A stretch of DNA of 60,551 bases from Patescibacteria group bacterium (lineage in GTDB: Bacteria > Patescibacteriota > JAHJAL01), in the NCBI GenBank assembly GCA_041648895.1, contig JBAZOB010000003.1, positions 1 to 60,551 of the forward strand. Direction: 5' to 3'. The notes beneath the pieces were generated by a model that saw nothing but the letters and a program-made list of their open reading frames with translations, ran no database searches and was not told the DNA's origin. The translations under genes and the position numbers were made by a program. How positions within the stretch are numbered: position 1 is the first letter of the stretch; each line of letters opens with the position of its first letter. Of this stretch, positions 16,422 through 54,957 are shown one piece after another.

Positions 16422-16463
16422 ATTTTGTTATTAGTATAATTAAATCATAATCTAAAAAATAAA

Positions 16464-23966: not shown

Positions 23967-24100
23967 CTTGATAAACAGCTATATTTTTATGGCTGTTTTT
24001 TAGTTAATGATCAAGTATCAAGTGTTATATACTTGATCCTTGGAACTTGATCCTTGATCCTTTTTATTATGTTATATTATTAGTAGAATAATGTTACTTT

Positions 24101-25114
24101 ATGAAAAAAATATATTTATCGATTTTATCATATTTTTTGCTTATCCAGGTGGTTTACGCCGCGACTTTCAACGTAGTGGGCAGTGTTCGATATGGGGATT
24201 ATGAAGATTTGATTTCGGCCAACAGTATTGAAGTCAAGGTGCATAAACTGGGTAATGATCGGATTTGGCTGGGGGCTTTGAGTAAAGATGGCGATCGAGT
24301 CAATTTTAATTTTCCCGTTGATGATTTGGCTCGTAACGATCAATTAATCATTACCGGTGAAGTGCTGGATTCGGGTGATGATGTGGATAACGATAGTTAT
24401 TTTGGTGGCGTCACCACGGTGATAACTGACAATGAATTAAATAGCGGTTTGGTGGGTGATTTAATTTTAGAACTCAATCCGATTCCCCGGCCGGAATTTG
24501 ATAGTATGACGGAGGAGTCGATAAAAATGTGTTGGCGAGGTATGAACGATTTTTCAGTGGTGGGATATGATGTTTATCGCACCAGTGATCTTTTCGGTGA
24601 TTGGGAGAGTGTGGGTAAATCAGGTCAGAGTAGTGATAAGCAAGTTTGTTTTACGGATGTAAATTTGCCGGAAGCCGACAAATATTATTATCGAATCGCG
24701 GTTATGACTTCCTGGAGCGCGGGCGAGGGTCGAGAATTTTTTATCTCCCGGGCCATGTCGGCGGTCAGTGATGGGATAAGTTTGGGACAGGGAGTGGTGG
24801 ATAAAAGGAATAAGCCGACTACTCCGATAGAAACAGGTGGGGAGTCAGATTTGACGTTACTACCCGAAGTTGATAGCGCGGCCAAGCAAAATTTAAAAGG
24901 TTTTTGGAATTGGGCGGGGGAGGCGTGGGAGGTGACTGCGGCCAAAGTGGAAGCCAGTCATATTTCCTGGCAAACAGTAATTATTTTGGTCGTGTTGGCG
25001 ATATTGTTGTTGGTATTAATAATATTTTTTATTTCTATTTCATTGTCCAATACGACTTCGCGGGGAAGTCTGGTGTGGATGGAGGGGGATTTGGATTTGG
25101 ATAAAGATAAATAA
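24101..25114 (+). CDS. Exported, C-terminally membrane-anchored protein with an FN3-like domain
   Basis: Signal peptide (LLIQVVYA-AT). FN3-like stretch (SIKMCWRG...VVGYDVYRT...YYYRIAV). C-terminal TM helix IILVVLAILLLVLIIFFISI. Confidence 0.55.
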   Translation: MKKIYLSILSYFLLIQVVYAATFNVVGSVRYGDYEDLISANSIEVKVHKLGNDRIWLGALSKDGDRVNFNFPVDDLARNDQLIITGEVLDSGDDVDNDSYFGGVTTVITDNELNSGLVGDLILELNPIPRPEFDSMTEESIKMCWRGMNDFSVVGYDVYRTSDLFGDWESVGKSGQSSDKQVCFTDVNLPEADKYYYRIAVMTSWSAGEGREFFISRAMSAVSDGISLGQGVVDKRNKPTTPIETGGESDLTLLPEVDSAAKQNLKGFWNWAGEAWEVTAAKVEASHISWQTVIILVVLAILLLVLIIFFISISLSNTTSRGSLVWMEGDLDLDKDK

Positions 25115-25191
25115 TAAATTTCTAATTCCTAATTGATAATTATTTTTGTATACTAAACTCTAGTAAAATAAAAAAAGCGTATTTATAAAGT

Positions 25192-27264: not shown

Positions 27265-27283
27265 CATTGTGTGTCATCATTCG

Positions 27284-27421
27284 TGTCATCCTCAACCCTA
27301 AGCGAGGAACGAGCGCTAGGGATTGGGGATCCAGTTATTAATTAACGGAAAGGAATATTAATAATTAGATAGGTGAGTGGGTCCTGGATAAGAAGCGCTG
27401 CGCTTTCTTTCCAGGATGACA
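27284..27421. mobile_element. MITE-like element, TGTCATCCT...AGGATGACA subfamily
   Basis: The left half is tgtcatcctcaaccctaagcgaggaacgagcgctagggattggggatccag and the right half is ggtcctggataagaagcgctgcgctttctttccaggatgaca. The terminal inverted repeats are shared with copies at 44750 and 45411. Confidence 0.65.
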
Positions 27422-27462
27422 AAATTATTTGATATTTGATATTTGTTTTTAAAATATTTTTT

Positions 27463-28113
27463 ATGCAAAAATTTGATCGTTTAAAAAAAGTGCTGTGGAT
27501 TTTTCTGTTGGCGGTGGTAGCGATTATCATTGTTACTTTTTTGATGTACATGACTTTTCCGGGGGGACTGCGGGATCGCCAGGCGGAAAATAATTTGGCG
27601 GAAAAAGTGGAAGAGATTGAGTTATCGGGGCAGGTGACTTTTCAGGATGAAAACAAGATTACTTTATTGGTGTCGGGTGGTTTGAGCCAGGATCTGGTTT
27701 TGGCCGACCAGGTGGTTTTCCAGGTGCGTAACCCGATGACCAATGATTATACCAATCTGGATACCGGTTATGATTTGACTGGACTATATGTCTTTGTGGA
27801 AACTAGTTATAACGGTCAGACCTATACGGCCAACAAGGTTAAAGCGGAGCAGGCCACGACTGTTTCGGGGCGGGTGGTCAGCGTGGGTGAATCTAGTTTT
27901 CAGATAGAAGATTATACGGGTGCGGTTTATGAGGTGTTAGTTACTGAGCATACTTCATATTTTATGGCTGGATCGACTGAACGTTTCAGTCTGGCGAATG
28001 TGGCGATTGACGACAATGTGGTGGCGACTTCGGCGTTGTTACTATCGACAGATAATAAAGTAGCGGCGGATTGGGTGGAGATTATTGATAGTAGTTTATT
28101 TGTGACCGAGTAA
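27463..28113 (+). CDS. Membrane-anchored hypothetical protein
   Basis: The start was moved to ATG 27463 (MQKFDRLKK). One TM helix, then a beta-rich ectodomain. Confidence 0.45.
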   Translation: MQKFDRLKKVLWIFLLAVVAIIIVTFLMYMTFPGGLRDRQAENNLAEKVEEIELSGQVTFQDENKITLLVSGGLSQDLVLADQVVFQVRNPMTNDYTNLDTGYDLTGLYVFVETSYNGQTYTANKVKAEQATTVSGRVVSVGESSFQIEDYTGAVYEVLVTEHTSYFMAGSTERFSLANVAIDDNVVATSALLLSTDNKVAADWVEIIDSSLFVTE

Positions 28114-28118
28114 TATTA

Positions 28119-28742
28119 ATGATTATGGCTGGCAGGACAAAAAAAATTATTGATGTGGTGAAGATGGCTGGTTTTTTGGTGCTGGGGATGTTATTGGTGT
28201 ATGCGATATTTGTGTTGGTGAATTTGAGTTTATTAAATAATACTAAGCAAGAAAAATTAGTGGAGGAATCAGAGGAAGTCGAGAGTAGTGAATTACATTT
28301 ATCGGATTATTCAGTAACTGGTCAATTACTTGCTGTATATGATGATCGAGTAGAATATTTTGATTCGGCTGGTGAAAAACAGATTATTAATGCGAATAAT
28401 CAATATAATGTATATAAAATTAATGGCGAAGACTCGGTTGAAATAAATATTAATGAAGTGTTGAACGAAGAAGTAAAATTTTATATTGTGAATAATAATC
28501 TTGAAGAGATTATTTATATTCCTTTTAATTATTACTATTCAGAGGTAGATAATATTGGTGATAATATAATAGAATTAAATAATGGTTTGAGTCTGGAAAT
28601 AAACGATGAAACAAAATTTGAGGGTTACGATGAATATAGTATTGAAGGTTTGACTTCATTGATCATTGGTGATTCGGTGTATGTAAGAACTTATAATAAA
28701 AGTAATTTGATTGATTATATTAGACTATTAGTTAGACATTAA
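28119..28742 (+). CDS. Membrane-anchored hypothetical protein
   Basis: One N-terminal TM helix, then an acidic N/E/I-rich ectodomain. The stop overlaps the start of the next gene. Confidence 0.45.
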   Translation: MIMAGRTKKIIDVVKMAGFLVLGMLLVYAIFVLVNLSLLNNTKQEKLVEESEEVESSELHLSDYSVTGQLLAVYDDRVEYFDSAGEKQIINANNQYNVYKINGEDSVEININEVLNEEVKFYIVNNNLEEIIYIPFNYYYSEVDNIGDNIIELNNGLSLEINDETKFEGYDEYSIEGLTSLIIGDSVYVRTYNKSNLIDYIRLLVRH

Positions 28743-30526
28743 TGAATATTAATATAAAAATTGTTTTAGTATCAGTATCATTTTTAATGATTATTTTAGT
28801 TGGTATTGCCAAAGGCGCTGATAATAAATATAAATCATTTGGTGATCGTGGTGTTTGCCAGCATGTTTCTGGTGATCCAATTTGTACATCTACTCCGCCA
28901 ACAATTTCGGCTAGTAAAACTTCGGCTGGTTTTAGTATTACTGCAACAACTAAGTATGGATCAAATAGTTTTAGTGCTCCATACCTGGATCCCAATGGCC
29001 CGGCGGATTGCTGCAGTGCAGATCTGGCTTGGAAAGCTGTAGTATATAGAGGATTTAATAGTTCAAATGAAACCACGTACACGTATAATGGGCATAACAT
29101 AAGAATTAGGTATGTTCCTTCATTTTATCATGACACGAATAGTGATTATATTGGCACTATTATCAAACCAGATCCTGTATTTAATTATGATGAAGCAAGA
29201 TTTAATTTTGCTGATTATGCTGGCAATAGTACTATTATTGCCACATGGATGGGAGTTCGAGCGGATGGCGTTTTGGTCAAAAATGCTATTACAGACAGTG
29301 ACGCTTCTTTGATTCTGTGCATTTATAAATCAACTAATCCGATAGGGTGTTTTGGTGGGGCTGCTAACCCTCGGCCGACAGCAGCGGAAATTACTTCATT
29401 TCGAAATTTTGTGAATGGTTTTGTGTCATCAGCAAGTGTTAATACAATTTTTTATCAAACAGTCTGGGAAAGTAATTGGGGTGGTGGGGAAGCATGTAAT
29501 TTTACTGGTCCCGCGATTAACAATTCATTCACTGGGACTATTAATAAAAATTATGTTTTTGATAGTAATCTAAAATATCGAATTGGATTACATGAACAAG
29601 TTGGTTCAGAGAATTGCATTGGTGATGAGGTTAATTCATTAGACAATTTTCGCTGGCGTACTCCTGTTGATTTACTTATAACTACTCCTCAACCTGGTCA
29701 GTGTGGTGAAGCCAATACTCATCATTTTGCATACAATGAAGCAACTTATACTTCTACATATGACCAATGTAATATAGGTAGTCCCAGCAGCACAGCTTTT
29801 CCGGCTCAGGGCAGTTCAGCGGCTTGGACTTGTAGCGGAGCAGATGGTGGTTCTCCAAGCGGTACTTGTACTGCTTATCGCGCAGCGGCACTAATAAATG
29901 GCGATTGTAGTTCTACGAAATATTTATGTGACGCAGGTGATGCTACTTCATCGTATGACACTATAGATTATTATAAATGGGATTGTATTGGTAGAAATGG
30001 CGGAACAAATGCTCAGTGTAGTATACCTAAGCCTGGTGATTGTGGTGGTGCGGCTACGTATTATACCGAAACAGCTTCATTTTTAACTGGCAGGGAGTGT
30101 GATATTGGTTCGGTGGTTGATAAATCTGTTAGTAATTTGAATCCTGCTCCTGGTGGACGGACGACTTGGCGTTGTCAGGTATTGCCGGGGGGTACGAAAA
30201 GTCCAACTTGCACGGCAACTAGGGAATTGATTGGGCGATGCGGTGTCGCGCAGGGTGAATATCTTGGTTCGGAATCAACATATCGTTCGCCATATTGTGC
30301 GGCGGGGACGGCGACAAGTTTGGATGTAAATGTTAATACCGGCCGACCTTTCCCTGATTTTGGCGATACGATTGATGAGGCTTGGAAATGTAATGGGGGT
30401 GCATATGGCGGGGCTAGCCCGACTTGTTCAGTCAGTCGCAAATCAATGGTGGATGGAGCGTGTCCGGAGTGTGGAACGAAGTATATGAATATTAGTATTA
30501 GCGTGCCTTTGGTAAGGTGTAGTTAA
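28742..30526 (+). CDS. Secreted Cys-rich protein with four tandem C-x-C...W-x-C-x-G-x-x-G-G...C repeats
   Basis: Signal/TM at the N-terminus. The repeats end AWTCSGADGGSPSGTCTA, YKWDCIGRNGGTNAQCSI, TTWRCQVLPGGTKSPTCTA and EAWKCNGGAYGGASPTCSV. Each is preceded by a G-x-C-G/S...C-x-x-G segment. Confidence 0.6.
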   Translation: MNINIKIVLVSVSFLMIILVGIAKGADNKYKSFGDRGVCQHVSGDPICTSTPPTISASKTSAGFSITATTKYGSNSFSAPYLDPNGPADCCSADLAWKAVVYRGFNSSNETTYTYNGHNIRIRYVPSFYHDTNSDYIGTIIKPDPVFNYDEARFNFADYAGNSTIIATWMGVRADGVLVKNAITDSDASLILCIYKSTNPIGCFGGAANPRPTAAEITSFRNFVNGFVSSASVNTIFYQTVWESNWGGGEACNFTGPAINNSFTGTINKNYVFDSNLKYRIGLHEQVGSENCIGDEVNSLDNFRWRTPVDLLITTPQPGQCGEANTHHFAYNEATYTSTYDQCNIGSPSSTAFPAQGSSAAWTCSGADGGSPSGTCTAYRAAALINGDCSSTKYLCDAGDATSSYDTIDYYKWDCIGRNGGTNAQCSIPKPGDCGGAATYYTETASFLTGRECDIGSVVDKSVSNLNPAPGGRTTWRCQVLPGGTKSPTCTATRELIGRCGVAQGEYLGSESTYRSPYCAAGTATSLDVNVNTGRPFPDFGDTIDEAWKCNGGAYGGASPTCSVSRKSMVDGACPECGTKYMNISISVPLVRCS

Positions 30527-30541
30527 TTTATCGCGTAACTT

Positions 30542-32737
30542 ATGAAAAAAAGTTTTTTATTGATTAATAGTGTTTTAGTATTGACTATTTTGTTGGTAAT
30601 AGCCTTAATTGGAATAAAAGTAGTCAAAGCCCAATTTCCGACCGGACCTTCCGGACCGGCCGGATGTTGGTGTGAACAAATTACCGGTAGTTGTGGTACT
30701 ACACCTATTAGTTGTCCGGCTGGTACAGTTGGGACGGCGGTAAGTCGTTGTCATAAGGTTAGTTATCGAAAAGTATGTTCGCCTGGTGCACCAAATCAAG
30801 TATTGAATTGTCCAGCTGCCAGTGAAACCTGGGAAGATGATTTTTCAGGTTGTCGAACAGTTTCAGGTACGATTTCGGCTAGTGGCACATGTAGCGGGAG
30901 TAGTCCGGCAGTTAATTTAACTTGGAATATTACCGGGGTTTCCAGTTGTTATGTATTTAGAGAAGGCCGGGGATCATCAATTTTTAGTACCAGTTGCAAT
31001 ACATCGTACACTGATAAAGATAGTAGTTTGAGACTTGGGACAAGTTATAACTATTATGTTTCTGATACTAGTAGTGGTGCCAATAGAATTGCCAGTGCTA
31101 GTGCTATTACCCCATCTTCTTGCGGTAGTCCGACGCCGAGTAATTTACCTTGTCAATCAAGTTGCACTGCAACTTCTCAATGTACCCAAGGTTTGACTTG
31201 TGTGGAAGGTAAGTGTGTTAATAATAATTGCGCGACTGACACAGATTGTGTTTGTGGTAATGTGCCATCCCAAACATACTCAGCAACATTAACTGGTCCG
31301 GTGGAGGTAAATGTCGGGCAGAGTTTTAATCTAAATTGGACCTGTTCTTCATCGATACAAGGAAGAAACTTGACGGCGGTAAGAATGGATGCATCACCCG
31401 CTCCAAGTGGATGGAACAGGGTAATGTCGACGACTGCCAACGGGGTGATATCGACTCAAATAAATGAGCCAACAGATTTTCATGTCTATTGTTTTTGGGG
31501 GATTGATATGGCAGAAGCAAGAAAGTCAGTTGGAATTATCGCGGCAGTGAATACTCCACCAACTGGCAGTCTGACTGTCAATGATTGTGGTCTGGTTACA
31601 GCCAATGTTTCTGATACCAACAATACTAGTGGTGGTAATATGACGGTCCGACTGTATGGTCGGGTGGAAGGTAGTAGTACGTTGCGTTTGATTACTTTGT
31701 CATCTCCTTATTCATCCGGCAGCATTCCGGCCAATCAAAGTGTAACTTTGTCTTTTGATCAAAATGCTTTTGCCCGAAGTTACGGATATGGAAGAACTTA
31801 TTTATATTTGGATACTAGGGATATATTGCCGAATGGTAGTGCCGGTTCATATGTCCGGGTGGTTGGCGGTAGCGCGGCCGATTCGTATGTAATTAATAAT
31901 CCAGCTACTTATTCTGGTCAGTGTGATGTTTCTTATAAATTATTGGTCAACGACGATGATAAAACTTGTCAGGTGGTTGGTAGTATAGTTAATCCCGATG
32001 GTTCTTGCCAATTGCCTGGAGCGAATAATTTTGTATGGAAAGCTCCTGTAAGAGAGTTTATGCAGGATTATGGCGGAGATATTAAGGTGAAAATGGTGGG
32101 CAATGCGAGATCTTATGCAAATACTGATAATGACAGGTGTAATGTACCAGAAACAGATGATGAACAAACATTTTTTGAAGATACATTTACACGCGAGTGT
32201 GCTATCCCGGATAGTATAAAGATTACAGATTTGTCAAATAATGAGGATGTTGATGGAGACAAGCCAGTTGTGATATATAGCCAGCCGGCGTTGGGGCAAC
32301 CGAGGTATGATGATGTGTTGGCTGAGGCTCAATGTACAGATGGAACATTATTTAATTTGGATGCTGCAAATATAATTGAGGGAAATAGTGGAAAGTGGGA
32401 ATATGGCGATTTGGCAGATTGCAGTTATAGTTCAGTCGATGGTTCTATTCCACCTTTTAATATTAAACGCCAATCAGGATTTGATATATATCGAATTACC
32501 GCCGGAGATAATGCTACTGATTGTGACGGTTCAGTTCGGGCAATAATTATTAATTATGTTTTGCTTGATCGGGGCGGTTCGGGAGAATTGGAATTTTGGG
32601 GACGGTTAACAGGTACGAAAACCGTTGAAGTGAAGGCGGGCGATCGGGTTTCGGAAGAGTTCAAATATACCGGTGATGTGATCACCAATCCACCGCCGGG
32701 GTTTGATAAGTTTATAGAGCCGTATGTTGGGGAATAA
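30542..32737 (+). CDS. Large secreted Cys-rich protein, function unknown
   Basis: N-terminal signal/TM and numerous Cys pairs in the first 240 aa. A hairpin+T terminator follows at about 32763..32795. Confidence 0.5.
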   Translation: MKKSFLLINSVLVLTILLVIALIGIKVVKAQFPTGPSGPAGCWCEQITGSCGTTPISCPAGTVGTAVSRCHKVSYRKVCSPGAPNQVLNCPAASETWEDDFSGCRTVSGTISASGTCSGSSPAVNLTWNITGVSSCYVFREGRGSSIFSTSCNTSYTDKDSSLRLGTSYNYYVSDTSSGANRIASASAITPSSCGSPTPSNLPCQSSCTATSQCTQGLTCVEGKCVNNNCATDTDCVCGNVPSQTYSATLTGPVEVNVGQSFNLNWTCSSSIQGRNLTAVRMDASPAPSGWNRVMSTTANGVISTQINEPTDFHVYCFWGIDMAEARKSVGIIAAVNTPPTGSLTVNDCGLVTANVSDTNNTSGGNMTVRLYGRVEGSSTLRLITLSSPYSSGSIPANQSVTLSFDQNAFARSYGYGRTYLYLDTRDILPNGSAGSYVRVVGGSAADSYVINNPATYSGQCDVSYKLLVNDDDKTCQVVGSIVNPDGSCQLPGANNFVWKAPVREFMQDYGGDIKVKMVGNARSYANTDNDRCNVPETDDEQTFFEDTFTRECAIPDSIKITDLSNNEDVDGDKPVVIYSQPALGQPRYDDVLAEAQCTDGTLFNLDAANIIEGNSGKWEYGDLADCSYSSVDGSIPPFNIKRQSGFDIYRITAGDNATDCDGSVRAIIINYVLLDRGGSGELEFWGRLTGTKTVEVKAGDRVSEEFKYTGDVITNPPPGFDKFIEPYVGE

Positions 32738-45552: not shown

Positions 45553-46593
45553 ATGAAATCTATTTATCAGAAAATTAAATCTATCCTCTCCGACGACTCC
45601 GGCTCGGCCATCATCATGGCCCTGATTATAATCGCCGGCCTCGCCGGCACCGGTCTTGGTGCTGCTCGTCTGTCGCGGTCCAACATTAGCCAGACCAACC
45701 AATTTGAAGACTCGCTGAAGGCTTTCTACGCGGCGGAAGCGGGCGTGGAAGCGGCGCTGCTGGAATGGCGGTTTGATCATGATGTGGAGTTTTGGGATCA
45801 GCAGGCGGCCAACGACTGCTATGATTCCGGCGGTACGGATGTCGATCGCTGCGCGGCGGCCACTCCGGCACACTATGTGACGCTGGATGATCAGACTTCG
45901 GCTTTTATGGGGCAGGATCTGGTGAGGAATTTGAGTGAAACTGAGGTGGAGGCGGGGGTGGTGCCCAAGAATCAGGCGTGGTATGAACTCCGGATTTATT
46001 ATCGGGATCCGAAGAATCCGTTTTTGGGGAATTATAATGGGTTTAATCCGGCGGTGGATAAAGAGGTGAGGATAAATAAAGATGAGACGCTGGAGATTAG
46101 GTTCCCGGAGAAGGATGAAGTAAAGGGTTTTAGTTTAAGATGGGCTCCTGATGGTATTGTGACTGGTAGTGATGAGTTTGTGCAATTAATGGTGCATCCG
46201 GTAGCAAAAGATGTGGATACAGGTGATACAGATCTTGTGTCTCCTCGTGGTAAAGAATATTTTACTGACAAAAACTGGAGAAATAATCAGCAGGGCGCAT
46301 TATATAATATTGAAAATGTATCTTCACTTGGAACTGGCAATTATGATTATGTATATAGTTTGCGAGTAAAGTGTTTAACAAATAATGAAAGTGGTAGTGC
46401 GGTGGTAGCGCTTTGGGCTTTTGATGGTGCTAATAATCCTATTCATGTGCCGCTTGATTTCATAACTATTGAATCAGTTGGACACTACAATGATGTTGAG
46501 AGGAAGGTTGTATATGAAATTGATAGAGAGAGTGGCACGATAATGGATATATTTGATCACGGTGTGTTTTCAGAACAAACACTGAGAAAGTAA
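45553..46593 (+). CDS. PilX-like minor pilin / pseudopilin
   Basis: N-terminal DDSGSAIIMALIIIAGLAGTGLGA hydrophobic helix typical of PilX_N. 346 aa. Last gene of the pilus block. Confidence 0.6.
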   Translation: MKSIYQKIKSILSDDSGSAIIMALIIIAGLAGTGLGAARLSRSNISQTNQFEDSLKAFYAAEAGVEAALLEWRFDHDVEFWDQQAANDCYDSGGTDVDRCAAATPAHYVTLDDQTSAFMGQDLVRNLSETEVEAGVVPKNQAWYELRIYYRDPKNPFLGNYNGFNPAVDKEVRINKDETLEIRFPEKDEVKGFSLRWAPDGIVTGSDEFVQLMVHPVAKDVDTGDTDLVSPRGKEYFTDKNWRNNQQGALYNIENVSSLGTGNYDYVYSLRVKCLTNNESGSAVVALWAFDGANNPIHVPLDFITIESVGHYNDVERKVVYEIDRESGTIMDIFDHGVFSEQTLRK

Positions 46594-46727: not shown

Positions 46728-48338
46728 TTAGAACGAAAATACTTCCCAGCGTCGAGGTGGATCGGCGAAATATACGAGGTAGTTGTTGCTGAAATCTCCA
46801 CCTCCTGGAGCCCATCCTGTAGGTAGGATTATGTCACACATACGTGTGGACGTCGTTCCTTCTACCAGGAATAGACTTTCCATTGCATTACCGGTGCCGG
46901 TGTCGCCGTCAGAGAATATTGCAGTTTTTCCGTTTTTTTTGGTAGAGCACAAAAAATTACTGTTATTTTGGCTCCATTCTGCAATATATGTTCCGCTGGA
47001 ATTGTATTTTGTGATCTTATCGCTTTCAGAACTGGCAACATAGAAGTTACCGTCTTCATCAGAAATAAGATCTTGCGGCCTTGCTGATAAATTTATTTTT
47101 GTGGAAGGATTCGAACCATCAAGGTCAAATTGCATAACAGTAGATGATGATCCACCGTTATCATCCACAAAAAATATTTTACTGGGAAGGAGTGGGTTAT
47201 ATGTTACCCCATTTCCTTGCCCAGAGAAAGGAGCGCCGGGAAAAGATGTTGGACCACTTGAGAAATCTATTGGAAAATAACATGCTGTTGTACCTGTCGG
47301 TAAGTACAGCCTGTTATTTCCTGGATGGAGGCCGATATATCCCAATCCAAGCGAGGTACTGCTTGTGTTATTTTCGGTCAATGCTGGAAAAGATACGTCT
47401 CTGATGATGTTCCAGCTTAAATCGTAAGCGTATACCTTGTTTCCAGTTTGATCGAATACCAGGTCCCAAATACCCCAGCCAGCGGTGTCTTTTGAGATGT
47501 CGTCCCTATATTTATAGACGACGAAATCCTTCTCGACGGATCCGCTGGTATTTTCTATCTTTATTGTCGTAAAACCTTGTCCGAATACGTAGGTTTCACT
47601 GACAATATTGAATGAGATCAAACCGTCGTTTTGGGTTATGACACCCAATGACTGGTCTGTCCCGTTTATTTTCACTGAACAGCTGCCCAGATTACTGCCT
47701 ACAATGGTTACTTCCGTTCCCTCGGGTCCACCCGAGGGGGCAACTAATGTCACCACCGGTGTCGGCACCGCGGTCGCCGTAGCGGTGGCGGTCGGGGTAG
47801 GCGTAAACGTCGCCCCAGGAATTGGGGTCGACGTGGGGACCAACGTTGGACTTGGTGTCCACGTTGGCGTACCTGGCCCGGGCGTCGGGGGTAGGGTAGG
47901 GGTCGCCGTTGCGGTTCCTGTGGAGTAGTCGTCTGTGTACGACTCTCCACTGAGCGACACTTGTCGCTCAACTATTGGGTTTGTACCACCTTGTTGGTAG
48001 ATACCAATGAGGTACTCACCCTTGTTGACTTCAGAAAAGCCATCTCCATTCGAGTCCAAATTGAACCCAAATGGAATAGCTTGACTTCCGTCAATTTGAC
48101 TCCCAGTAGTTATTGGATTTCCCTCGACTCGGCCGTTGGCCTCGTCTGACAAGACTCTGTATATTGTCTTGTCAGGGCCACTGGGGGTAGGAAAAGTGAT
48201 GTTTGTGGGGACCGATGTGGGGTCCGAGGGCACCCCTGGAAGTCCGCCTCCACCACAGCCTATCAACAATGACAAAATAAGGATGGTTGAGGTAAATTTA
48301 AAAAATTTCGTTCTGAACAAATTGATCAATCCTTTCAA
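46728..48338 (-). CDS. Lipoprotein with a P/T-rich linker, an IPT/TIG domain and a beta-propeller (NHL-like) C-domain
   Basis: Lipobox LLIGC. Linker TATPTLPPTPGPGTPTWTPSPTLVPTSTP. IPT-like VVTLVAPSGGPEGTEVTIVGSNLG. Repetitive C-terminal half. Confidence 0.6.
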   Translation of the reverse strand: MKGLINLFRTKFFKFTSTILILSLLIGCGGGGLPGVPSDPTSVPTNITFPTPSGPDKTIYRVLSDEANGRVEGNPITTGSQIDGSQAIPFGFNLDSNGDGFSEVNKGEYLIGIYQQGGTNPIVERQVSLSGESYTDDYSTGTATATPTLPPTPGPGTPTWTPSPTLVPTSTPIPGATFTPTPTATATATAVPTPVVTLVAPSGGPEGTEVTIVGSNLGSCSVKINGTDQSLGVITQNDGLISFNIVSETYVFGQGFTTIKIENTSGSVEKDFVVYKYRDDISKDTAGWGIWDLVFDQTGNKVYAYDLSWNIIRDVSFPALTENNTSSTSLGLGYIGLHPGNNRLYLPTGTTACYFPIDFSSGPTSFPGAPFSGQGNGVTYNPLLPSKIFFVDDNGGSSSTVMQFDLDGSNPSTKINLSARPQDLISDEDGNFYVASSESDKITKYNSSGTYIAEWSQNNSNFLCSTKKNGKTAIFSDGDTGTGNAMESLFLVEGTTSTRMCDIILPTGWAPGGGDFSNNYLVYFADPPRRWEVFSF

Positions 48339-48957: not shown

Positions 48958-49374
48958 CTATTCGTAAAAGTTTACAGTCTGTTTGTGGTCGGTACCATCG
49001 TTGAAATGGACTACGAAGTACCATTCACAACCCTTAGGCTCTATGTGGTCGATGACCGTTAGATCTTTGGGTACCAACGTTCCATGTCTGTAGGGTTTTG
49101 TTGCACTGGATGTGAACAAGGGGTTTTTTGGCGAGGGCCAAAGGTCGTAAGAAACCGAATTCTCGGGGCTTACGAAGGAAATGTAGTTTCCAAGGTCGGG
49201 TGGCAAATCTGATCCCGCCGGAGCGGGTTTAAACAGATTTTCTGGGCCACCACAACCAAACCCAGTAAGTAATCCCAGAAGGATTAGTGCAAGAAAAATG
49301 GAGGAGACAAGAAAACGTGTTCGCAGAACAAACACCTCCTTAGGTCGTAAGATATCCCTTCTCCCAAAGGGCAA
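48958..49374 (-). CDS. Small lipoprotein, function unknown
   Basis: The lipobox LTGFGC follows a hydrophobic segment. The true start may be internal. Confidence 0.45.
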   Translation of the reverse strand: MPFGRRDILRPKEVFVLRTRFLVSSIFLALILLGLLTGFGCGGPENLFKPAPAGSDLPPDLGNYISFVSPENSVSYDLWPSPKNPLFTSSATKPYRHGTLVPKDLTVIDHIEPKGCEWYFVVHFNDGTDHKQTVNFYE

Positions 49375-49692
49375 ATCTTTTATTTTTGGTTTTGATTTAC
49401 AAGAGATACAATACCAAATCCACTCGCAAATACAATCATTTCTTCACCCTCACTTTCCCAAAACACCCATAACTAAAACTATCCTGCCAAATATATTTTA
49501 AGCGGGAGATTTAATTAAAATTTAATGAGAAATTATTGGTTATTTTAATGTTTTGTTAATTTTTGCTTAAGCTGAAATTAATAACTGTTTGTGTAAAATA
49601 CAAATTAGAAATGGCTGTGTATAAGTACTATAGTGTTAGTTTGACAGTTATGTTAAATTGGTTGTGGACGTATTTTTTTAATTCAAATTTTA

Positions 49693-50553
49693 ATGAAGAC
49701 GATCGGAATAATTGCTCCTTCAAGACATCTTGGAGAGTATAAAGATATATTTAATTTTGGTGTTGATAGATTAAGGAGAGAGGGATTTAATATTGTAATG
49801 GCACCAAATGTCTATGAAGTTGATAATAATTCTGCGGGTAGTATTGAACAGAGAATAGCTGGTTTGGATCAGATTTTACTAAATGACGATATTGACGTTG
49901 TGATGTGTACTTTGGGCGGAGATAGTGCCAATCATTTACTTGATCGAATTGATTGGAGTGTTTATTCAAAATTAAATAAGATTTTGATTGGCTATAGTGA
50001 TGTTACTCATTTGCTGTTGGCGTTTCAAAAAAAGACAGATCTAAAATTGTATTATGGCCCTCATATTAAAGATATTTCTAGTTTAACCAATGAATCTTTT
50101 GGAGTTTTAACTACTTTTATTGATACTGGTGGGTTGCTCTGGCCTGATGATTTTCAAGTGGTAAGATCTGGAAAGGTGATTGGTGAGTTGTATGGAGGTA
50201 ATTTGTTTGTGGTGAATAATATGTTGGCTACGGATTATGTTGATGATTTTTCTGGAAGAGTATTATTTTGGGAAGATGTTGATGATGGATTATCGGCAGT
50301 TGAGTATCAATTGTATCAGATGAGATTGCACGGGGTATTTAGCAGAATAAAGGGGATGATGGTTGGCAATGTAGTGGGTGACGATATTGATAACAATAAT
50401 TTGGCTGAAATTATTTTGGATGCGGCAAGAGGGTTCGATTTTCCGATTGTAAAGGTGGATTGGTTTGGACATGAGGTGAATGATTTTCGGGTAGTGCCCT
50501 ACGGGGGTAAGGTGATGATTGATATTGTTGAGGATAAATTGGAATTAATGTAA
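49693..50553 (+). CDS. S66 family LD-carboxypeptidase / MccF-like serine peptidase
   Basis: IGIIAPS N-terminus, nucleophile elbow IGYSDVTHL, later FWED and FGHE consistent with a Ser-Glu-His triad. Confidence 0.75.
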   Translation: MKTIGIIAPSRHLGEYKDIFNFGVDRLRREGFNIVMAPNVYEVDNNSAGSIEQRIAGLDQILLNDDIDVVMCTLGGDSANHLLDRIDWSVYSKLNKILIGYSDVTHLLLAFQKKTDLKLYYGPHIKDISSLTNESFGVLTTFIDTGGLLWPDDFQVVRSGKVIGELYGGNLFVVNNMLATDYVDDFSGRVLFWEDVDDGLSAVEYQLYQMRLHGVFSRIKGMMVGNVVGDDIDNNNLAEIILDAARGFDFPIVKVDWFGHEVNDFRVVPYGGKVMIDIVEDKLELM

Positions 50554-50653
50554 TTTTTTTTTAGTTGTAATTAACAGATCTATTAAGATATTTAAATATA
50601 TTTTAATTGTTCTTTAATAATTAAATGATTTGAATGTAAGGAGGGGGATATAC

Positions 50654-51559
50654 ATGATCAGTGCGATCGATGTAGTAATAAAGTATTCAAAGGAAGTGAT
50701 AGATGGTGCGTCTTTCACAATTATGGACGGAGACAAGATTGGTATTGTTGGGCCTAACGGAGCTGGTAAATCCACCTTATTCAGGGCGATAATGGGTGAT
50801 ATCAAGCCCAGCTCGGGCAGGATTGAAATAGCAAAAAACACTCGACTGGGGTTTTTGCCCCAGGTTATATACGATGATTATTCTGTTATGGATAGTACGA
50901 TATATGATTATTTTATGTCTGTTCATAACTTAAAGGAATTGGAAGATGAATTGAATCAGATTTGTGAGGCTATGGAGGATGGAGTCGATGTTGAGAAGAA
51001 GATGGATAAATACATAGTTTTACAAGACAGGTTTCAGATGCTGGGCGGATATGAACTTGAAGGTAGACTGAAAAAAGTTATAAAAGGTCTTGGTGCGGAA
51101 GATTTTGATTTGCAAAGAAAGATGTGGAGTTTGTCTGGTGGAGAAAAATCAAAAATAGCTTTGGCGAGACTGATTTTTTCTGAGCCAGATGTGATGTTGA
51201 TGGACGAACCTACCAACCACTTAGATAAAGATATGTTGAGGTGGGTGGTTGATTTTCTGAAGAAGTACAAAAAGGCATTGGTCATTATTTCTCATGATCA
51301 GACTTTTTTGGATGAGGTTGTAAATCGAATATATTACGTTTCTCATGAGAATTTAGAGATTTATCATGGGAATTATTCGAAATTTGTAGAGCAGAAAAAG
51401 GAAAGAGATGACACTTTGCAGAGGGTAGAGAAAAACCGTGAGAGAGAAGAAAAACGTATTTTAGATTATGTAAATAAAATGCAGAATATATCGGGAAGAA
51501 GAAAAAGACAGGTAAAGAGTAGGATGAAGCAACTTGATCGCTTGAGTGAAAGAAAATAG
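50654..51559 (+). CDS. ABC-F ATPase, N-terminal part (NBD1 plus K/R/E-rich interdomain linker)
   Basis: Walker A GPNGAGKST, signature LSGGEKSKIALARL, Walker B VMLMDEPTNHLD, linker EKNREREEKRILDYVNKMQNISGRRKRQVKSRMKQLDRLSERK. No TM domain. The start was moved to ATG 50654, after AGGAGGGGG. Confidence 0.8.
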   Translation: MISAIDVVIKYSKEVIDGASFTIMDGDKIGIVGPNGAGKSTLFRAIMGDIKPSSGRIEIAKNTRLGFLPQVIYDDYSVMDSTIYDYFMSVHNLKELEDELNQICEAMEDGVDVEKKMDKYIVLQDRFQMLGGYELEGRLKKVIKGLGAEDFDLQRKMWSLSGGEKSKIALARLIFSEPDVMLMDEPTNHLDKDMLRWVVDFLKKYKKALVIISHDQTFLDEVVNRIYYVSHENLEIYHGNYSKFVEQKKERDDTLQRVEKNREREEKRILDYVNKMQNISGRRKRQVKSRMKQLDRLSERK

Positions 51560-51573
51560 AGATAAAAGATGAA

Positions 51574-52245
51574 ATGAAAAGAGTAAGATTATCTCTAGAT
51601 AATTTCACGGATTGTGGTAAGTTGCCGTTGGATATTGAGAAGTTGGAATTTTCATATCCAGGTTCCGAGCCGATAATTTCTGGTCTGAGTTTTGAAGTTT
51701 TACCGGAAGAAAAGTTTTTGATTGTTGGGAAAAATGGAGTAGGCAAGACTACCTTGATGAGGATATTAGCGGGGAGGATTGGGGGTTACTTGGGTAGTCT
51801 TCGTTATAATCCTAAAGTTGAATTAGCGTATTATTCTCAAGAACATGAGGATTTATGTCTTGAGAATAAGGTGATTGATGAGATATTAAATGTTACGGAC
51901 TGGAGCCATGGAACAGTAAGAAACTATTTGGCTAGATTCTTGTTTAATCAGGAAAAGGTTTTTCAAGAAGTTGAGACTCTTTCTCCTGGTGAGCGAAGTA
52001 GACTAGCACTAGCCAAAATGATTGTGTCTCCATCGAATTTTTTAGTTCTTGATGAACCAACTAATCATTTGGATTTTCAGACCAGAGATGTTTTGGCTGA
52101 TGCTCTGAATGAAAGTGGTAAGACGATGATAATTGTTTCCCACGAGATTAAGTTTCTTGAGAGACTCGAAATTGATCGGATGTTGATTTTGCCTGAGAAA
52201 ATAGTTGATTACTATGATTCTCAGGTAGTTTTGGAAAGGAAGTGA
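51574..52245 (+). CDS. ABC-F ATPase, C-terminal part (NBD2); separate frame from the N-terminal part
   Basis: Walker A GKNGVGKTT, signature LSPGERSRLALAKM, Walker B LVLDEPTNHLD. This frame is open from 51550, so a 1-nt shift in gaaagaaaa (51548..51556) would fuse the two parts. Confidence 0.8.
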   Translation: MKRVRLSLDNFTDCGKLPLDIEKLEFSYPGSEPIISGLSFEVLPEEKFLIVGKNGVGKTTLMRILAGRIGGYLGSLRYNPKVELAYYSQEHEDLCLENKVIDEILNVTDWSHGTVRNYLARFLFNQEKVFQEVETLSPGERSRLALAKMIVSPSNFLVLDEPTNHLDFQTRDVLADALNESGKTMIIVSHEIKFLERLEIDRMLILPEKIVDYYDSQVVLERK

Positions 52246-52251
52246 TATGTT

Positions 52252-53331
52252 ATGCACAGGGAGTGTTTGTTGCAGATAAAGCCGGTGGGTTCTTCATGCA
52301 ATATGAATTGTTCATATTGTTATGTTGAGCCTTTTAAGAAAAAGAAGATAAACAGAATGACTCTAAAATTGCTTGAAAAAGTGGTGAGTAAATATTCTGA
52401 ATTGGATATTGAAAACCCGACTTTCAGTTGGCATGGGGGAGAACCACTGCTTTTTGGTCTGGAGAATATGGAAAAAGCAATGGATTTGCAGAAAAAATAT
52501 TTTAATGGAAGAGGTGTAGTTAATCTTGTTCAGACGAATGGTACTTTGATTAATCTTGATATGGCCACCTTTCTTGCAGAAAATAATTTTATAGTAAGCG
52601 TTAGCTTAGATGGTTCTGCTGAAGTGCATGATAGGAATCGCAAGTTTGGCGAAAACGGATCATTTGGTCGAGTAATGGCTGGGGTGGATGTTTTGCGTAG
52701 TGTAGGCTTGAACACAAGTGTGATAGCGACTGTCACGAAGGAAAATCTGGAGTTTTCTAAAGAGGTTTTTACTTTTTTGGTAAACCAAGGTTTTACTTCA
52801 ATAAAATATAGCCCGGTCTATGATTCTAATAGGGATGCCTTTAGTATCTCTTCGGACGAATGGTTCAATTATTTGTCTGAGGTATTTGACTTATGGATGG
52901 GTTTGGCTAGTACTGGCATAAGAGTCAGGGAATTGGACGAAGTTATTGTTTGGCTAAAAAAGGATCGACTAAACCTTTGTGCCACAACAGGTGGTTGTTC
53001 AAAATGGATGTCAGTTGATCCGGAAGGGAATATTTATCCATGTGAATATTTACGGAGTAAATTTTCGTATGGAAATATTCTTTGTCAAAATTTTTGCCAG
53101 ATCATGACTTCGAGTGAGTTCGTTGAGTTTGGGAGACTGGTATCAGTTCCTAATATTCAATGTTCAGAATGTGAATTCTATGACTTTTGTGGAAATGGTT
53201 GTCCGGCCACAAGAGTTGATTTTGAGGGCAATATTTCTTACTCCGGGCAATATATTTATTGCAACCAGAGGAAGAGATTATATCAGAAAATAAAAACAGA
53301 TTTTGAAAAAATATTAGGTCATGGAATCTAA
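52252..53331 (+). CDS. Radical SAM / SPASM-domain enzyme (anSME-like peptide-modifying maturase)
   Basis: CNMNCSYCY (CxxxCxxC) at residues 16-24, WHGGEPLL, QTNGTL. C-terminal auxiliary-cluster cysteines CATTGGC...YPCEY...CSECEFYDFCGNGCPA. The start is 6 nt after the ABC-F stop. Confidence 0.85.
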   Translation: MHRECLLQIKPVGSSCNMNCSYCYVEPFKKKKINRMTLKLLEKVVSKYSELDIENPTFSWHGGEPLLFGLENMEKAMDLQKKYFNGRGVVNLVQTNGTLINLDMATFLAENNFIVSVSLDGSAEVHDRNRKFGENGSFGRVMAGVDVLRSVGLNTSVIATVTKENLEFSKEVFTFLVNQGFTSIKYSPVYDSNRDAFSISSDEWFNYLSEVFDLWMGLASTGIRVRELDEVIVWLKKDRLNLCATTGGCSKWMSVDPEGNIYPCEYLRSKFSYGNILCQNFCQIMTSSEFVEFGRLVSVPNIQCSECEFYDFCGNGCPATRVDFEGNISYSGQYIYCNQRKRLYQKIKTDFEKILGHGI

Positions 53332-53352
53332 AAAACAAAGGAGGTGAAAGCA

Positions 53353-53430
53353 GTGCAAGAATTTGTTTGGACAATATTAAATACCGACTCCGAGTGGAGT
53401 GGATCAGCTGCTCAATGGATTAAGTGTTAA
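53353..53430 (+). CDS. Candidate RiPP precursor peptide 1 (25 aa)
   Basis: AAGGAGGTG lies 6 nt before GTG 53353. Sequence VQEFVWTILNTDSEWSGSAAQWIKC*. Paralogous to peptide 2. Not in the ORF track. Confidence 0.6.
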   Translation: MQEFVWTILNTDSEWSGSAAQWIKC

Positions 53431-53463
53431 ACACTTGATCTGCCGGGCGAAGGAGGTGAAAAT

Positions 53464-53550
53464 ATGTCTGACATTCAAAATTTTGTCACTGCAGTGCTTA
53501 GTGAAAGTTCAGAATGGCAGGGGTCAGTTGCGTCCTGGACGAAGTGCTAG
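53464..53550 (+). CDS. Candidate RiPP precursor peptide 2 (28 aa)
   Basis: AAGGAGGTG lies 5 nt before ATG 53464. Sequence MSDIQNFVTAVLSESSEWQGSVASWTKC*. Not in the ORF track. Confidence 0.65.
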   Translation: MSDIQNFVTAVLSESSEWQGSVASWTKC

Positions 53551-53565
53551 GTGAGTAGTGCGCCT

Positions 53566-53600
53566 AAAAAAGACCGTGAGGTAAAACTCGCGGTCTTTTG
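53566..53600 (+). terminator. Rho-independent terminator closing the rSAM-peptide operon
   Basis: agaccgtgag-gtaaaa-ctcgcggtct followed by tttt. Confidence 0.75.
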
Positions 53601-53733
53601 TCATATTATGGTTAATTTTTTTGCATAATAATAGTTATAGTAGTATGTTAATGATATCTTTTTCTTAATGATAATTTTTTAATTAGTTTTTATGAAACCA
53701 GAGCTGTTAAGTATTACTAATAATAATTAGATT

Positions 53734-54183
53734 ATGAACATAGAATCCAAGAACCAATCCTTCTCCTGCGAAAACTGCGGCGCTGCTGTTTCCGGCCCTG
53801 GGGAAATTAGCACCAAACATCGTAATCATTGCCCGGTATGTTTATTTTCCAAACATGTCGATTTGAACATATCCGGTGACCGGCAGGCCAAGTGTGGCGC
53901 ATTGATGAAGCCAATTGGTTTAACATTTAAACAGGAAGGACAGGATAAATATGGGAAAGTACGGACGGGAGAGTTGATGCTGGTGCACGAGTGCGTGGGT
54001 TGCGGACGGGTTTCGATCAATCGGATTGCGGCTGACGATGATCCGGAAAGTATCTTGGCGGTTTTTGATCAGTCGCTAGATTTATCAATCAGGAAAAAAG
54101 ATGATTTGCAAAAAATGGGTATTCGGATCTTAACTGAGTCTGATAAGGCAGAGGTAAAAAAGCAGCTTTTTGGAAAATATTAA
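53734..54183 (+). CDS. RNHCP domain protein
   Basis: It contains the eponymous RNHCPVCLFSKHVD motif plus CENC and CVGC zinc-ribbon pairs. Confidence 0.75.
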   Translation: MNIESKNQSFSCENCGAAVSGPGEISTKHRNHCPVCLFSKHVDLNISGDRQAKCGALMKPIGLTFKQEGQDKYGKVRTGELMLVHECVGCGRVSINRIAADDDPESILAVFDQSLDLSIRKKDDLQKMGIRILTESDKAEVKKQLFGKY

Positions 54184-54436: not shown

Positions 54437-54655
54437 ATGACTAAAACAACGATTGATGATTTGTCAAAGATAATGAGCGATGAAGTATCGTTATTGGACG
54501 AGAGATTGACAAAATTGGAAGAGCGGATGCTGGTAATGGAGATGAATATGCGTGATCTGGGCCATTCCAATGAGGCGACGCAATATTTTTTGCGAACGGT
54601 GACTAGTGATGTAGTGGCCATCAAGCAGTATCAGAATATTAGTAATCGATATTAA
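54437..54655 (+). CDS. Small coiled-coil hypothetical protein
   Basis: 72 aa. GGAGGTG lies upstream of the ATG. The stop overlaps the start of the next RNHCP gene. Confidence 0.45.
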   Translation: MTKTTIDDLSKIMSDEVSLLDERLTKLEERMLVMEMNMRDLGHSNEATQYFLRTVTSDVVAIKQYQNISNRY

Positions 54656-54957
54656 TGCCAAATAAGAAATTTCAACGTTGCCAAGAAGATTTTACTTGCG
54701 ATAATTGCGGGAAAGAGGTGATCGGCAATGGTTACACCAACCATTGCCCATATTGTTTGTATAGCAAACATGTTGATATTAACCCGGGCGATCGAGCGGC
54801 GGAGTGTGGAGGGTTAATGTGCCCGGTGGGAGTAGAAATTAAACGAGGCCAATATATTGTGCGACATCGGTGCGCAAAATGTGGACATGAGAAACCAAAT
54901 CGGATTGATGAGGCGGATGATATGGAGGTGGTGATTGAAATTGCCCGACATCGTTAA
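54655..54957 (+). CDS. RNHCP domain protein (short paralog)
   Basis: CDNC...TNHCPYCLYSKHVD...CAKC. It aligns with 53734..54183 apart from a missing internal loop. Confidence 0.75.
   Translation: MPNKKFQRCQEDFTCDNCGKEVIGNGYTNHCPYCLYSKHVDINPGDRAAECGGLMCPVGVEIKRGQYIVRHRCAKCGHEKPNRIDEADDMEVVIEIARHR

Follow-up and report, generated by a model that had tools for sequence, protein, structure and literature searches.

A candidate radical SAM/SPASM cassette with W-x-K-C precursor peptides, a PoxtA-like ABC-F ATPase and an MccF-like S66 peptidase in a Patescibacteria contig

The stretch of DNA analysed here (the window) comprises 60,551 nucleotides of contig JBAZOB010000003.1 from a Patescibacteria group bacterium (assembly GCA_041648895.1), and carries on its forward strand a candidate operon for a peptide that is made by the ribosome and modified after translation (RiPP). 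Its first gene encodes an S66 peptidase of the LD-carboxypeptidase/MccF family (286 aa, positions 49693-50553; Pfam Peptidase_S66 and S66C). After a spacer of 100 nt follows a PoxtA-like ABC-F ATPase with two nucleotide-binding domains (NBDs) and a linker (50654-52245; two ABC_tran domains plus ABC_tran_Xtn in Pfam, no membrane domain), and 6 nt beyond its end starts a radical SAM/SPASM enzyme (52252-53331, 359 aa), a candidate peptide maturase with a fold like that of the anaerobic sulfatase-maturating enzymes (anSMEs) and without a RiPP recognition element (RRE). Two small open reading frames (ORFs) come next, the candidate precursor peptides 1 (53353-53430, GTG start, 25 aa, MQEFVWTILNTDSEWSGSAAQWIKC) and 2 (53464-53550, ATG start, 28 aa, MSDIQNFVTAVLSESSEWQGSVASWTKC). 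The same Shine-Dalgarno sequence, AAGGAGGTGAAA, stands before both, at 53338-53349 and 53450-53461. Precursor 1 most plausibly starts at the GTG at 53353; an alternative GTG at 53344 sits inside the Shine-Dalgarno sequence. The operon ends with an intrinsic-terminator-like hairpin and a U-rich tail (53568-53607): a 13-bp stem with a 6-nt loop occupies 53568-53599 and is followed by UUUUGU, with a folding energy of -22.2 kcal/mol (z = -3.7) that none of 200 shuffled sequences equalled. A preliminary description of the window had proposed this gene order, the double-NBD ABC-F, a separate ribosome-binding site for each mini-ORF and the closing terminator, and the ORF list, the raw sequence and the Pfam matches agree with it on all these points.

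In the family to which the two peptides belong, the N-terminus has the pattern of an amphipathic, leader-like helix of the K-K-E-F-V-L-x-V-L type, and the C-terminal core of the precursors reads W-x-G-x4-W-x-K-C, with the Cys carrying the free carboxylate. An alignment of 22 diverse peptides shows that the Trp at position -4, the Lys at -2 and the terminal Cys are invariant among them, and that at least 90% carry a second Trp seven residues upstream, in the context W-[R/S/Q]-[G/A]. The Lys is replaced by Arg at two loci, L031 and L032. The first W-x-G was discarded as an essential site, being missing at L015, L016, L049 and L053. The peptides gave no Pfam or NCBIfam match even at E up to 10, and the 31 peptide clusters retrieved by a profile search were without exception unnamed or 'hypothetical'. 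No source that we consulted names the peptides, and the preliminary description had not recognised the motif as that of any named family.

Scans of one-genome-per-species contigs and of metagenome contigs yielded 62 related loci, those from genomes lying in metagenome-assembled genomes (MAGs) labelled Saccharibacteria, Bacilli, Clostridia, Erysipelotrichaceae, Alphaproteobacteria and Rickettsiales. We counted as a precursor any ORF of 22-47 aa whose last four residues, directly before the stop codon, are W-x-[K/R]-C. Such an ORF was found at 49 of the 62 loci, a recurrence well above what chance would produce, with an AGGAGG-type site in front in essentially all cases, and it accompanies radical SAM enzymes of 39-51% identity in at least five bacterial groups, so that the possibility of orthologous enzymes devoid of conserved mini-ORFs, considered in the preliminary description, is not what we observed. 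The peptide ORF lies almost always directly 3' of the radical SAM gene, and at L005, L006 and L008 directly after the ABC-F gene, and in this way it tracks both genes. The loci without a peptide are mostly cut by a contig end or carry a truncated radical SAM gene; the two exceptions are L002, with full flanks, and L048, with about 250 nt of downstream flank. At L017 (6063-6251) the ORF reads past ...NWIKC into QSQNLIAGAGQNSDQTNP..., either through loss of the stop codon or as a follower-bearing variant.

In a comparison of 36 core sequences, 4081 differences fall on third codon positions, versus 2167 on first and 1937 on second positions. The invariant Lys is encoded by both AAA and AAG, the invariant Cys by both TGT and TGC, and all three stop codons occur after the Cys. 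Since third positions differ about twice as often as the other two, selection acts on the protein sequence of the peptides, and by this signature the ORFs are coding. The preliminary description had further taken the duplicated precursors as an operon hallmark. The window does contain two paralogous ORFs, but the tandem pair was found at no other of the 62 loci. Its reading of the block as a RiPP operon is strongly supported by the co-localised and co-conserved precursor, the coding signature and the leader/core pattern, and we are highly confident that the radical SAM enzyme and the peptides form a real RiPP-type pair of maturase and substrate.

The radical SAM enzyme matches both Pfam Radical_SAM and SPASM and belongs to that superfamily. 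Its SAM-cluster motif CxxxCxxC is formed by C16, C20 and C23, and the domain begins at about residue 8, with no extra N-terminal domain in the AlphaFold2 model (pLDDT 92, pTM 0.90). No PqqD or RRE match was found for it in Pfam or NCBIfam, nor an RRE gene among the conserved neighbours, in line with the motif at residue 16 and the missing N-terminal RRE/PqqD domain that had been pointed out earlier. The deposited gene call (P0001, 324 aa) begins at M36 and would drop the CxxxCxxC; because the alignment of orthologues conserves the N-terminus from Q8 onward, the ATG at 52252 is the correct start. Eight invariant SPASM cysteines align with C255, C261, C276, C330 and with C317, C320, C326 and C348 of anSMEcpe, one to one with the ligands of its auxiliary clusters Aux I and Aux II, and leave no obvious open iron site; altogether the 11 cluster cysteines of the two enzymes align one-to-one. 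Asp277 of anSMEcpe corresponds to Glu265 in a YPCEYL motif, a residue that is conserved in at least 90% of the family and might substitute for the Asp, and Tyr24 of anSMEcpe corresponds to Val25. In the six-position catalytic-site profile after PMC10288494, position 1 is Y24 and positions 5-6 are E265 and Y266.

Among NCBIfam hidden Markov models (HMMs) the best match of the enzyme is the anSME model TIGR03942 (252.7 bits; cutoff 349.45), followed by DynA NF041298 (213.6; cutoff 450). Two other anSME models, PRK13745 and PRK13758, give 179.5 against a cutoff of 484 and 174.5 against 441. PapB, YhhB (137 of 445), GrrM/OscB (134 of 310), AmcB (122 of 425), DarW and DarE (NF038005, 103.8 of 650) rank after DynA, all far under cutoff; FxsB reaches 92 of 370 and WgkB 77 of 650, XyeB is not among the top NCBIfam matches, and no NCBIfam cutoff is reached at all. 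Three orthologues and two enzymes of a sister clade (see below) show the same pattern, the orthologues with 260-277 bits on the anSME model, again under its cutoff. The nearest solved sequence is anSMEcpe (E 1.5e-41), and identity to annotated anSMEs is 26-32%; in a plasmid collection, whose anSMEs share 27-32%, no relative exceeded 32%. With Foldseek, the model superimposes on anSMEcpe (4K37) with a TM of 0.85 and on ChlB (9GM3, 9GMC) with 0.84-0.85. ChlB is a 'radical SAM multiple cyclophane synthase' in the description of PMC12912966, and its crystals contained the precursor's leader. The 29 window ORFs scanned with family libraries include no sulfatase, about half of the long ORFs lying outside that scan. 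A tight grouping with anSMEs in a sulfatase-encoding genome, which the preliminary description had held up as a danger to its reading, is thus at odds with a score of 253 bits against a cutoff of 349, with an identity of 27-32% and with the scanned gene content.

A protein search with the radical SAM enzyme returned 416 relatives at E ≤1e-20. The best 120 of the 416 share 41-51% identity, are 260-400 aa long and carry either no name or one of 'radical SAM protein', 'hypothetical protein' and 'uncharacterized protein'. Among 1.84 billion representatives at 50% identity, the family has two full-length representatives (358 and 349 bits); after a gap come P0122 (272 bits, 39% identity) and P0123 (256 bits, 37%), and under 231 bits an anSME-like continuum of proteins. 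P0122 and P0123 are each trailed directly by a small ORF, MKKKLFAEKALAKALRHANQPASVSWKDHGWLQN and MKSKFVKMVLTNLTKKAEQSASVCWKDSGWLRN, and these sister-clade peptides (L064 1219-1320; L065 1394-1495) end in ...SWKD[H/S]GWL[Q/R]N. The sister clade thus retains the leader style and the W-x-[Q/R] unit, with a terminal Asn in place of the Cys. Decayed cassettes were seen in gut Bacilli and Alphaproteobacteria MAGs: at L018 (5001-5449) an internal deletion has left about 110 radical SAM codons beside an intact peptide gene and ABC-F, at L020 (2032-2307) the radical SAM gene is truncated, and at L019 (5001-6024) it is frameshifted. As far as sequence comparison can tell, the cassette is conserved and horizontally spread.

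Neighbouring genes were compared by tblastn with the window proteins and by all-against-all clustering of the ORFs from all loci, and the radical SAM enzymes were grouped into 20 lineages at an identity of at least 65%. An ABC-F gene adjoins the cassette in about 25 loci, usually directly upstream and in the same direction; at L005, L006 and L008 it lies downstream of the radical SAM gene, and at L016 and L028 on the opposite strand. By lineage it is present in 12-14 of the 20, two of these matches being weak or distant. The S66 gene adjoins the cassette in 14 loci (9-10 of the 20 lineages), mostly in convergent orientation, and both genes occur together in four lineages besides that of the window. 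Their recurrence beside the cassette in many independent lineages and in varied arrangements strengthens the link to the accessory genes that had been drawn from the window by itself. Pairwise identities of the radical SAM and ABC-F proteins are correlated, with a Spearman coefficient of 0.69 overall and 0.55 for pairs below 60% radical SAM identity, a data set that includes one mis-picked ABC protein (L001), which adds noise. This correlation fits inheritance of the two genes as a unit.

Other lineages carry other genes. In the largest clade, of 21 loci with Saccharibacteria MAGs among them, a class-I SAM methyltransferase resembling UbiE/UbiG lies directly after the peptide, with a GNAT acetyltransferase behind it; the pair was seen at L014, L030, L036-L038, L041-L045, L050, L054 and L058 (for example at L037 1618-2451 and L043 7118-7540). 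These enzymes could serve in tailoring or as alternative self-protection. Of the remaining small groups, one has an alpha/beta hydrolase and another a second methyltransferase. An Erysipelotrichaceae/Clostridia lineage has an antisense methyltransferase of 300-390 aa between the radical SAM and ABC-F genes (L005 2537-3454, L006 6121-7284, L008 6132-7052, L051 1291-2178), with the peptide after the ABC-F.

The ABC-F gene of the window had been described as split. It is indeed read there as two ORFs in different frames (50654-51559 and 51574-52245) with an A-rich stretch between them, the frame being lost through a deletion of one nucleotide from the A-run at 51549-51551. Over 6861 bp, the independent contig L063 (ENA ERZ27247363, k141_2804480) matches the window at 99.985% identity with a single gap: the window has GTGAAAGAAAATAG where L063 has GTGAAAAGAAAATAG, with one extra A, and the ABC-F of L063 is intact (530 aa), and so called in the public annotation of that contig. 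Joined across the break, the two halves align without gaps with ten intact orthologues. Because L063, otherwise identical, has one more A and an intact gene, the split is no design feature; the deletion in the window is an assembly error or a strain polymorphism and no property of the system. The same contig excludes a programmed or biological split, and an alternative genetic code is excluded as well, the break being a frameshift with no in-frame TGA and with ordinary stop usage.

The intact ABC-F of L063 scores 409.2 bits on the model NF000355, 'ribosomal protection-like ABC-F', above its cutoff of 380, while the halves in the window score 229 and 179. Intact orthologues score 403-430 bits, with that of L004 just under the cutoff at 373. 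The best match in the PDB is PoxtA (7P7Q, 328 bits), colinear over residues 13-525 including the linker, ahead of the housekeeping proteins YbiT, Uup, YheS and EttA at 225-240 bits (YbiT next, with 240), and both Walker B DE pairs are present. The L063 protein stays below the cutoffs of specific resistance families (OptrA, 252 of 1450; Sal, 271 of 725). By these comparisons, the ABC-F resembles the resistance-type PoxtA more than the housekeeping EttA, Uup and YbiT.

The S66 peptidase is well supported as a family member (Peptidase_S66, E 5e-29; S66C, E 2e-19), and its nearest solved relatives are MccF immunity proteins (E 1.5e-25), with LdcA behind (4e-17 and weaker); the sole NCBIfam match is LdcA, far under cutoff. 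The positions of the Ser-Glu-His triad, in GYSD, ED and GH, align with those of MccF. The MccF loop is shortened, residues 125-149 standing opposite MccF 138-192 with about 30 residues missing, so the extended loop by which MccF recognises the nucleotide moiety is lacking in the window protein. Canonical S66 substrates end in L-Lys (or meso-diaminopimelate)-D-Ala, and for this reason the enzyme could plausibly take off the last residue of a Lys-Cys end or expose it. Action on that terminus could plausibly mean either detoxification or maturation, and the protein could be a processing peptidase instead of an immunity protein.

The 5' flank of the cassette is an AT-rich intergenic stretch (49375-49692), bounded by a divergent minus-strand ORF (48958-49374) and the start of the S66 gene; it presumably bears the promoter, and its sigma-70-like matches are all weak. 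The 100-nt spacer that separates S66 from ABC-F has no significant fold (z = -0.44), and on that ground we rejected an attenuator or a structured leader there. Downstream lie genes for two RNHCP-domain proteins (Pfam PF12647), a zinc-ribbon protein of 149 aa (53734-54183, plus strand, E 2.7e-26) and a second of 100 aa (54655-54957, plus strand, E 2.8e-28). RNHCP genes were also seen 250-500 nt upstream of the radical SAM gene in four loci of another lineage (L022 4478-4753, L024 168-434, L025 4476-4742, L062 3307-3582), and those of the window are possible accessory genes with a weak link to the cassette. A known defence system was rejected, as PADLOC returned generic ABC, radical SAM and methyltransferase domain matches only.

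The window as a whole is ordinary chromosome with 40% G+C, encoding TyrRS, ArgRS, PBP1A, HolB, a type IV pilus set (PilB, PilT, PilC), GlmS and six tRNAs, a content that suits an origin in the Candidate Phyla Radiation without proving it. A large serine recombinase (16440-18134; Resolvase, Recombinase, Zn_ribbon_recom) ends inside or abuts a minus-strand tRNA-Pro (18115-18189), and this junction could be the edge of an integrated element. Several large ORFs of 340-730 aa (in 24092-32737, 7164-9293 and 45553-46593) have no Pfam or NCBIfam match; for one of 691 aa (25189-27264), a search of 5.8 billion proteins gave no more than four homologues, all distant and unnamed. A predicted lipoprotein of 536 aa, with a long Pro/Thr-rich linker and no family match, is encoded on the minus strand (46728-48338), just upstream of the region that holds the cassette.

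We lean, without great conviction, towards a reading in which the cassette makes a W-x-K-C RiPP by cyclophane chemistry, the product is directed at translation, and the ABC-F and S66 proteins protect the producer. Sequence and comparison show that the short precursors (two in the window) are translated, each with an amphipathic leader and a W-x-K-C core; the leader helix would be bound directly by the radical SAM enzyme, since the latter has no RRE, as is the case for ChlB. The enzyme would then modify the invariant C-terminal W-x-K-C: the 5'-deoxyadenosyl radical would take a hydrogen from the beta-carbon of the Lys (or Arg), the resulting carbon radical would add to the indole of Trp(-4), two residues upstream, and an electron would pass to the two fully ligated auxiliary clusters. 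The net change would be -2 Da, with a ring like the W-S/T-K/R rings of darobactin and the xenorceptides. The terminal Cys might serve in recognition, offer a second site of modification or be removed later. The product would harm the translation of its own producer; the PoxtA-like ABC-F would shield the ribosome and the S66 enzyme, of carboxypeptidase type, would cleave or detoxify the modified C-terminus, the methyltransferase and GNAT playing an equivalent part in other lineages.

Taken by itself, the assignment of the cross-link as a Trp-Lys cyclophane seems to us a little short of an even chance. It is favoured because the W-[S/T]-[K/R] that lies near the C-terminus of darobactin and the xenorceptides is closed into a ring between Trp-C6 and C-beta (bioRxiv 10.1101/2024.12.16.628070); because the exchange of Lys for Arg in the family, and for Gln or Arg in its sister clade, suits a C-beta at position +2 better than a Lys amine or a Cys thiol; because all ligands of the auxiliary clusters are kept; and because cyclophane synthases are the closest of the peptide-modifying relatives in both HMM and structural comparisons. 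The anSME model as top match is no argument against this chemistry, since DarE, too, is closest to anSME over its full length and yet makes Trp-Lys and Trp-Trp cross-links (PMC10288494).

Several observations weigh against the reading that we favour. The cyclophane chemistry is assigned entirely by analogy, and the radical SAM sequence is nearer to anSME (253 bits) than to the named cyclophane synthases (DynA 214, GrrM/OscB 134, XyeB lower). A Trp-Lys ring leaves the invariant terminal Cys unaccounted for, and the reaction could in truth take place at this residue. Besides protection, ABC-F proteins serve in housekeeping and regulation, and the S66, methyltransferase and GNAT enzymes could all serve in tailoring or processing instead of immunity. 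The largest clade has neither ABC-F nor S66, and the conserved neighbours include neither an exporter nor a dedicated leader peptidase, an uncommon situation for a secreted antibiotic.

The prominence of the Cys makes it necessary to consider, as the main rival, that the enzyme acts on this residue and forms no Trp-Lys ring, which we judge unlikely. Such a reaction could be a thioether from the Cys sulphur to Trp, Lys or another residue (as in sactipeptides and ranthipeptides, or tryptathionine-like), an anSME-like oxidation to formylglycine or thioaldehyde, or an MftC-like oxidative decarboxylation. The Cys is indeed invariant and always last, with any of the three stop codons next; anSME, which oxidises Cys or Ser, is the nearest relative by HMM, sequence and structure; and the model of the ranthipeptide maturase PapB scores 144-160 bits. 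However, the thioether synthase CteB binds the substrate Cys at an open Aux I iron, whereas all eight auxiliary-cluster Cys ligands are present here. Glu stands in place of the catalytic Asp277 of anSME and Val in place of Tyr24, the peptides lack the C/S-x-P/A-x-R motif of anSME substrates, and the sister clade has the W-x-[Q/R] unit followed by an Asn end.

Concerning the target of the favoured product, translation is probably indicated by the identity and recurrence of the ABC-F, with support from the MccF-like peptidase, and we give an even chance to the ABC-F and S66 proteins being self-protection against such a product. The presence of different protection or tailoring candidates at the same position in different lineages is consistent with a toxic product, without proving it. 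Rather unlikely, somewhat more so than a reaction on the Cys, is that the accessory genes are biosynthetic helpers: the S66 enzyme would trim the C-terminus or remove the leader, and the ABC-F would be a translation factor or regulator, which might relieve stalling on W-x-K-C-stop or signal as LmrC does, the target being unrelated to translation. No other protease is conserved in the cassette, the end of the canonical S66 substrate resembles a Lys-Cys C-terminus, and the ABC-F is usually in the same operon directly upstream of the radical SAM gene. A precedent is LmrC, an ABC-F whose regulatory role in a producer is documented (PMC8546547). Nevertheless, lineages differ in what they carry at the same place (ABC-F, S66, or methyltransferase plus GNAT), which suits alternative means of protection or tailoring more readily than a single indispensable helper; further, the S66 gene is mostly transcribed convergently, and the ABC-F is nearer to PoxtA than to EttA, Uup or YbiT.

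Radical SAM/SPASM enzymes also make pyrroloquinoline quinone (PQQ) and mycofactocin from C-terminal residues of small peptides, and the modified peptide could by analogy be the precursor of a small redox cofactor or metabolite (related to PQQ, mycofactocin or a Trp-quinone), with the S66 enzyme releasing a C-terminal fragment. The C-terminal modification site, the lack of an exporter and the often adjacent peptidase would suit this idea. We nevertheless regard it as very improbable: no oxidoreductase or other cofactor-pathway gene is conserved nearby, the patchy spread across phyla and the decayed copies resemble an accessory trait, and the ABC-F association would be left unaccounted for. Finally, an ordinary anSME beside mini-ORFs that arose by chance, suggested by the top HMM and structural matches, is refuted by the comparative data, as the enzyme falls under all three anSME cutoffs with 27-32% identity to annotated anSMEs and no sulfatase among the scanned window ORFs, and the amino acids of the mini-ORFs are conserved across phyla with synonymous turnover.

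If the cyclophane and self-protection reading is right, the cassette would represent an uncharacterised modified-peptide family in many uncultured lineages, including Saccharibacteria, of the Candidate Phyla Radiation (CPR), and gut Bacilli and Clostridia, groups that have, to our knowledge, yielded very few natural products. Its nearly obligate association with a resistance-type ABC-F or an MccF-like peptidase would give a concrete prediction of the target, the translation machinery. It might in turn reveal what antibiotic-resistance (ARE) ABC-Fs such as PoxtA evolved against in nature, giving a branch of these resistance proteins a natural origin and a physiological ligand. The peptide chemistry of the anSME-like, RRE-less radical SAM/SPASM branch would be extended, and the minimal four-residue C-terminal motif would be attractive for peptide engineering. 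More tentatively, and with less confidence than we attach to the Trp-Lys ring, we suggest that this could be the first ribosome-targeting family of cyclophane-type RiPPs, made by an RRE-less anSME-like radical SAM enzyme on a W-x-K-C peptide, spread horizontally among CPR bacteria, gut and groundwater Firmicutes and Alphaproteobacteria, and with a PoxtA-like ABC-F and an MccF-like S66 peptidase as natural self-immunity.

Comparison with known systems places the cassette beside several of them. With the triceptides and daropeptides (XyeB/XncB, GrrM/OscB, ChlB, DarE, DynA, xenorceptides) it shares a radical SAM/SPASM gene next to a small precursor and an aromatic-x-x core motif, here the invariant W-x-[K/R] at -4 to -2 and W-L-[Q/R] in the sister clade; with ChlB and DynA it also shares the lack of an RRE, ChlB being close in fold (TM 0.84-0.85) and DynA the second-best HMM. 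The window enzyme differs in falling under the cutoff for every named family of three-residue cyclophane-forming enzymes (XyeB, GrrM/OscB, FxsB, YhhB, AmcB). In place of an S-F end, the core has as its last residue an invariant Cys whose carboxylate is free, and the W-x-W ether motif of the daropeptides is absent from the peptides; the enzyme reaches 213.6 of 450 bits on DynA and 103.8 of 650 on DarE. Where those systems have exporter and protease genes, ABC-F and/or S66 genes are found here, and the host MAGs belong to CPR, gut Firmicutes and Alphaproteobacteria as opposed to Enterobacterales. The anSMEs (anSMEcpe, AslB, ChuR; TIGR03942) are the best match by HMM, sequence and structure, with equal length, no RRE and the same 11 cluster cysteines; the window enzyme departs from them in its score (253 versus a cutoff of 349), its identity (26-32%), the changes of Asp277 to Glu and Tyr24 to Val, and its partner, a conserved peptide of 22-47 aa with no sulfatase among the window ORFs scanned. 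In streptide and the WGK RaS-RiPPs (StrB, WgkB), a radical SAM/SPASM enzyme cross-links Lys and Trp of a short peptide through a C-C bond, as is predicted here. Those systems are RRE-dependent, have Rgg/SHP quorum control and exporters, and act on the motifs K-x3-W and W-G-K, which are unlike W-x-K-C; the WgkB model gives the window enzyme only 77 of 650 bits.

Among the accessory proteins, the S66 peptidase finds in MccF its best solved relative (E 1.5e-25), with Ser, Glu and His aligned, and MccF acts on the modified C-terminal residue of a translation-targeting RiPP. It is, however, about 50 residues shorter, with about 30 of the loop residues missing, and the cassette has no MccB-type adenylating enzyme. 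The ABC-F shares with the ARE ABC-Fs (PoxtA, OptrA, and OleB, CarA and LmrC of producers) the two NBDs and linker, is colinear with PoxtA and scores above the cutoff of NF000355, and like OleB, CarA and LmrC it is encoded within a biosynthetic-type cluster; it stays below every specific resistance-family cutoff, and its protective role is a prediction. In the literature we found no precedent for a fixed association of an ABC-F with a radical SAM RiPP, and no earlier account of a radical SAM and W-x-K-C peptide cassette with ABC-F or MccF-like S66. Existing censuses of radical SAM RiPPs were filtered by RRE association or by co-localised ABC transporters (PMC10288494). The W-x-K-C family, having no RRE or membrane transporter, may have escaped the RRE-based census, or an ABC_tran domain filter may instead have caught it. 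While radical SAM/SPASM RiPPs are already known as a type, new here are the precursor family and the maturase subfamily, neither of them described before, and a set of accessory genes that is unusual.

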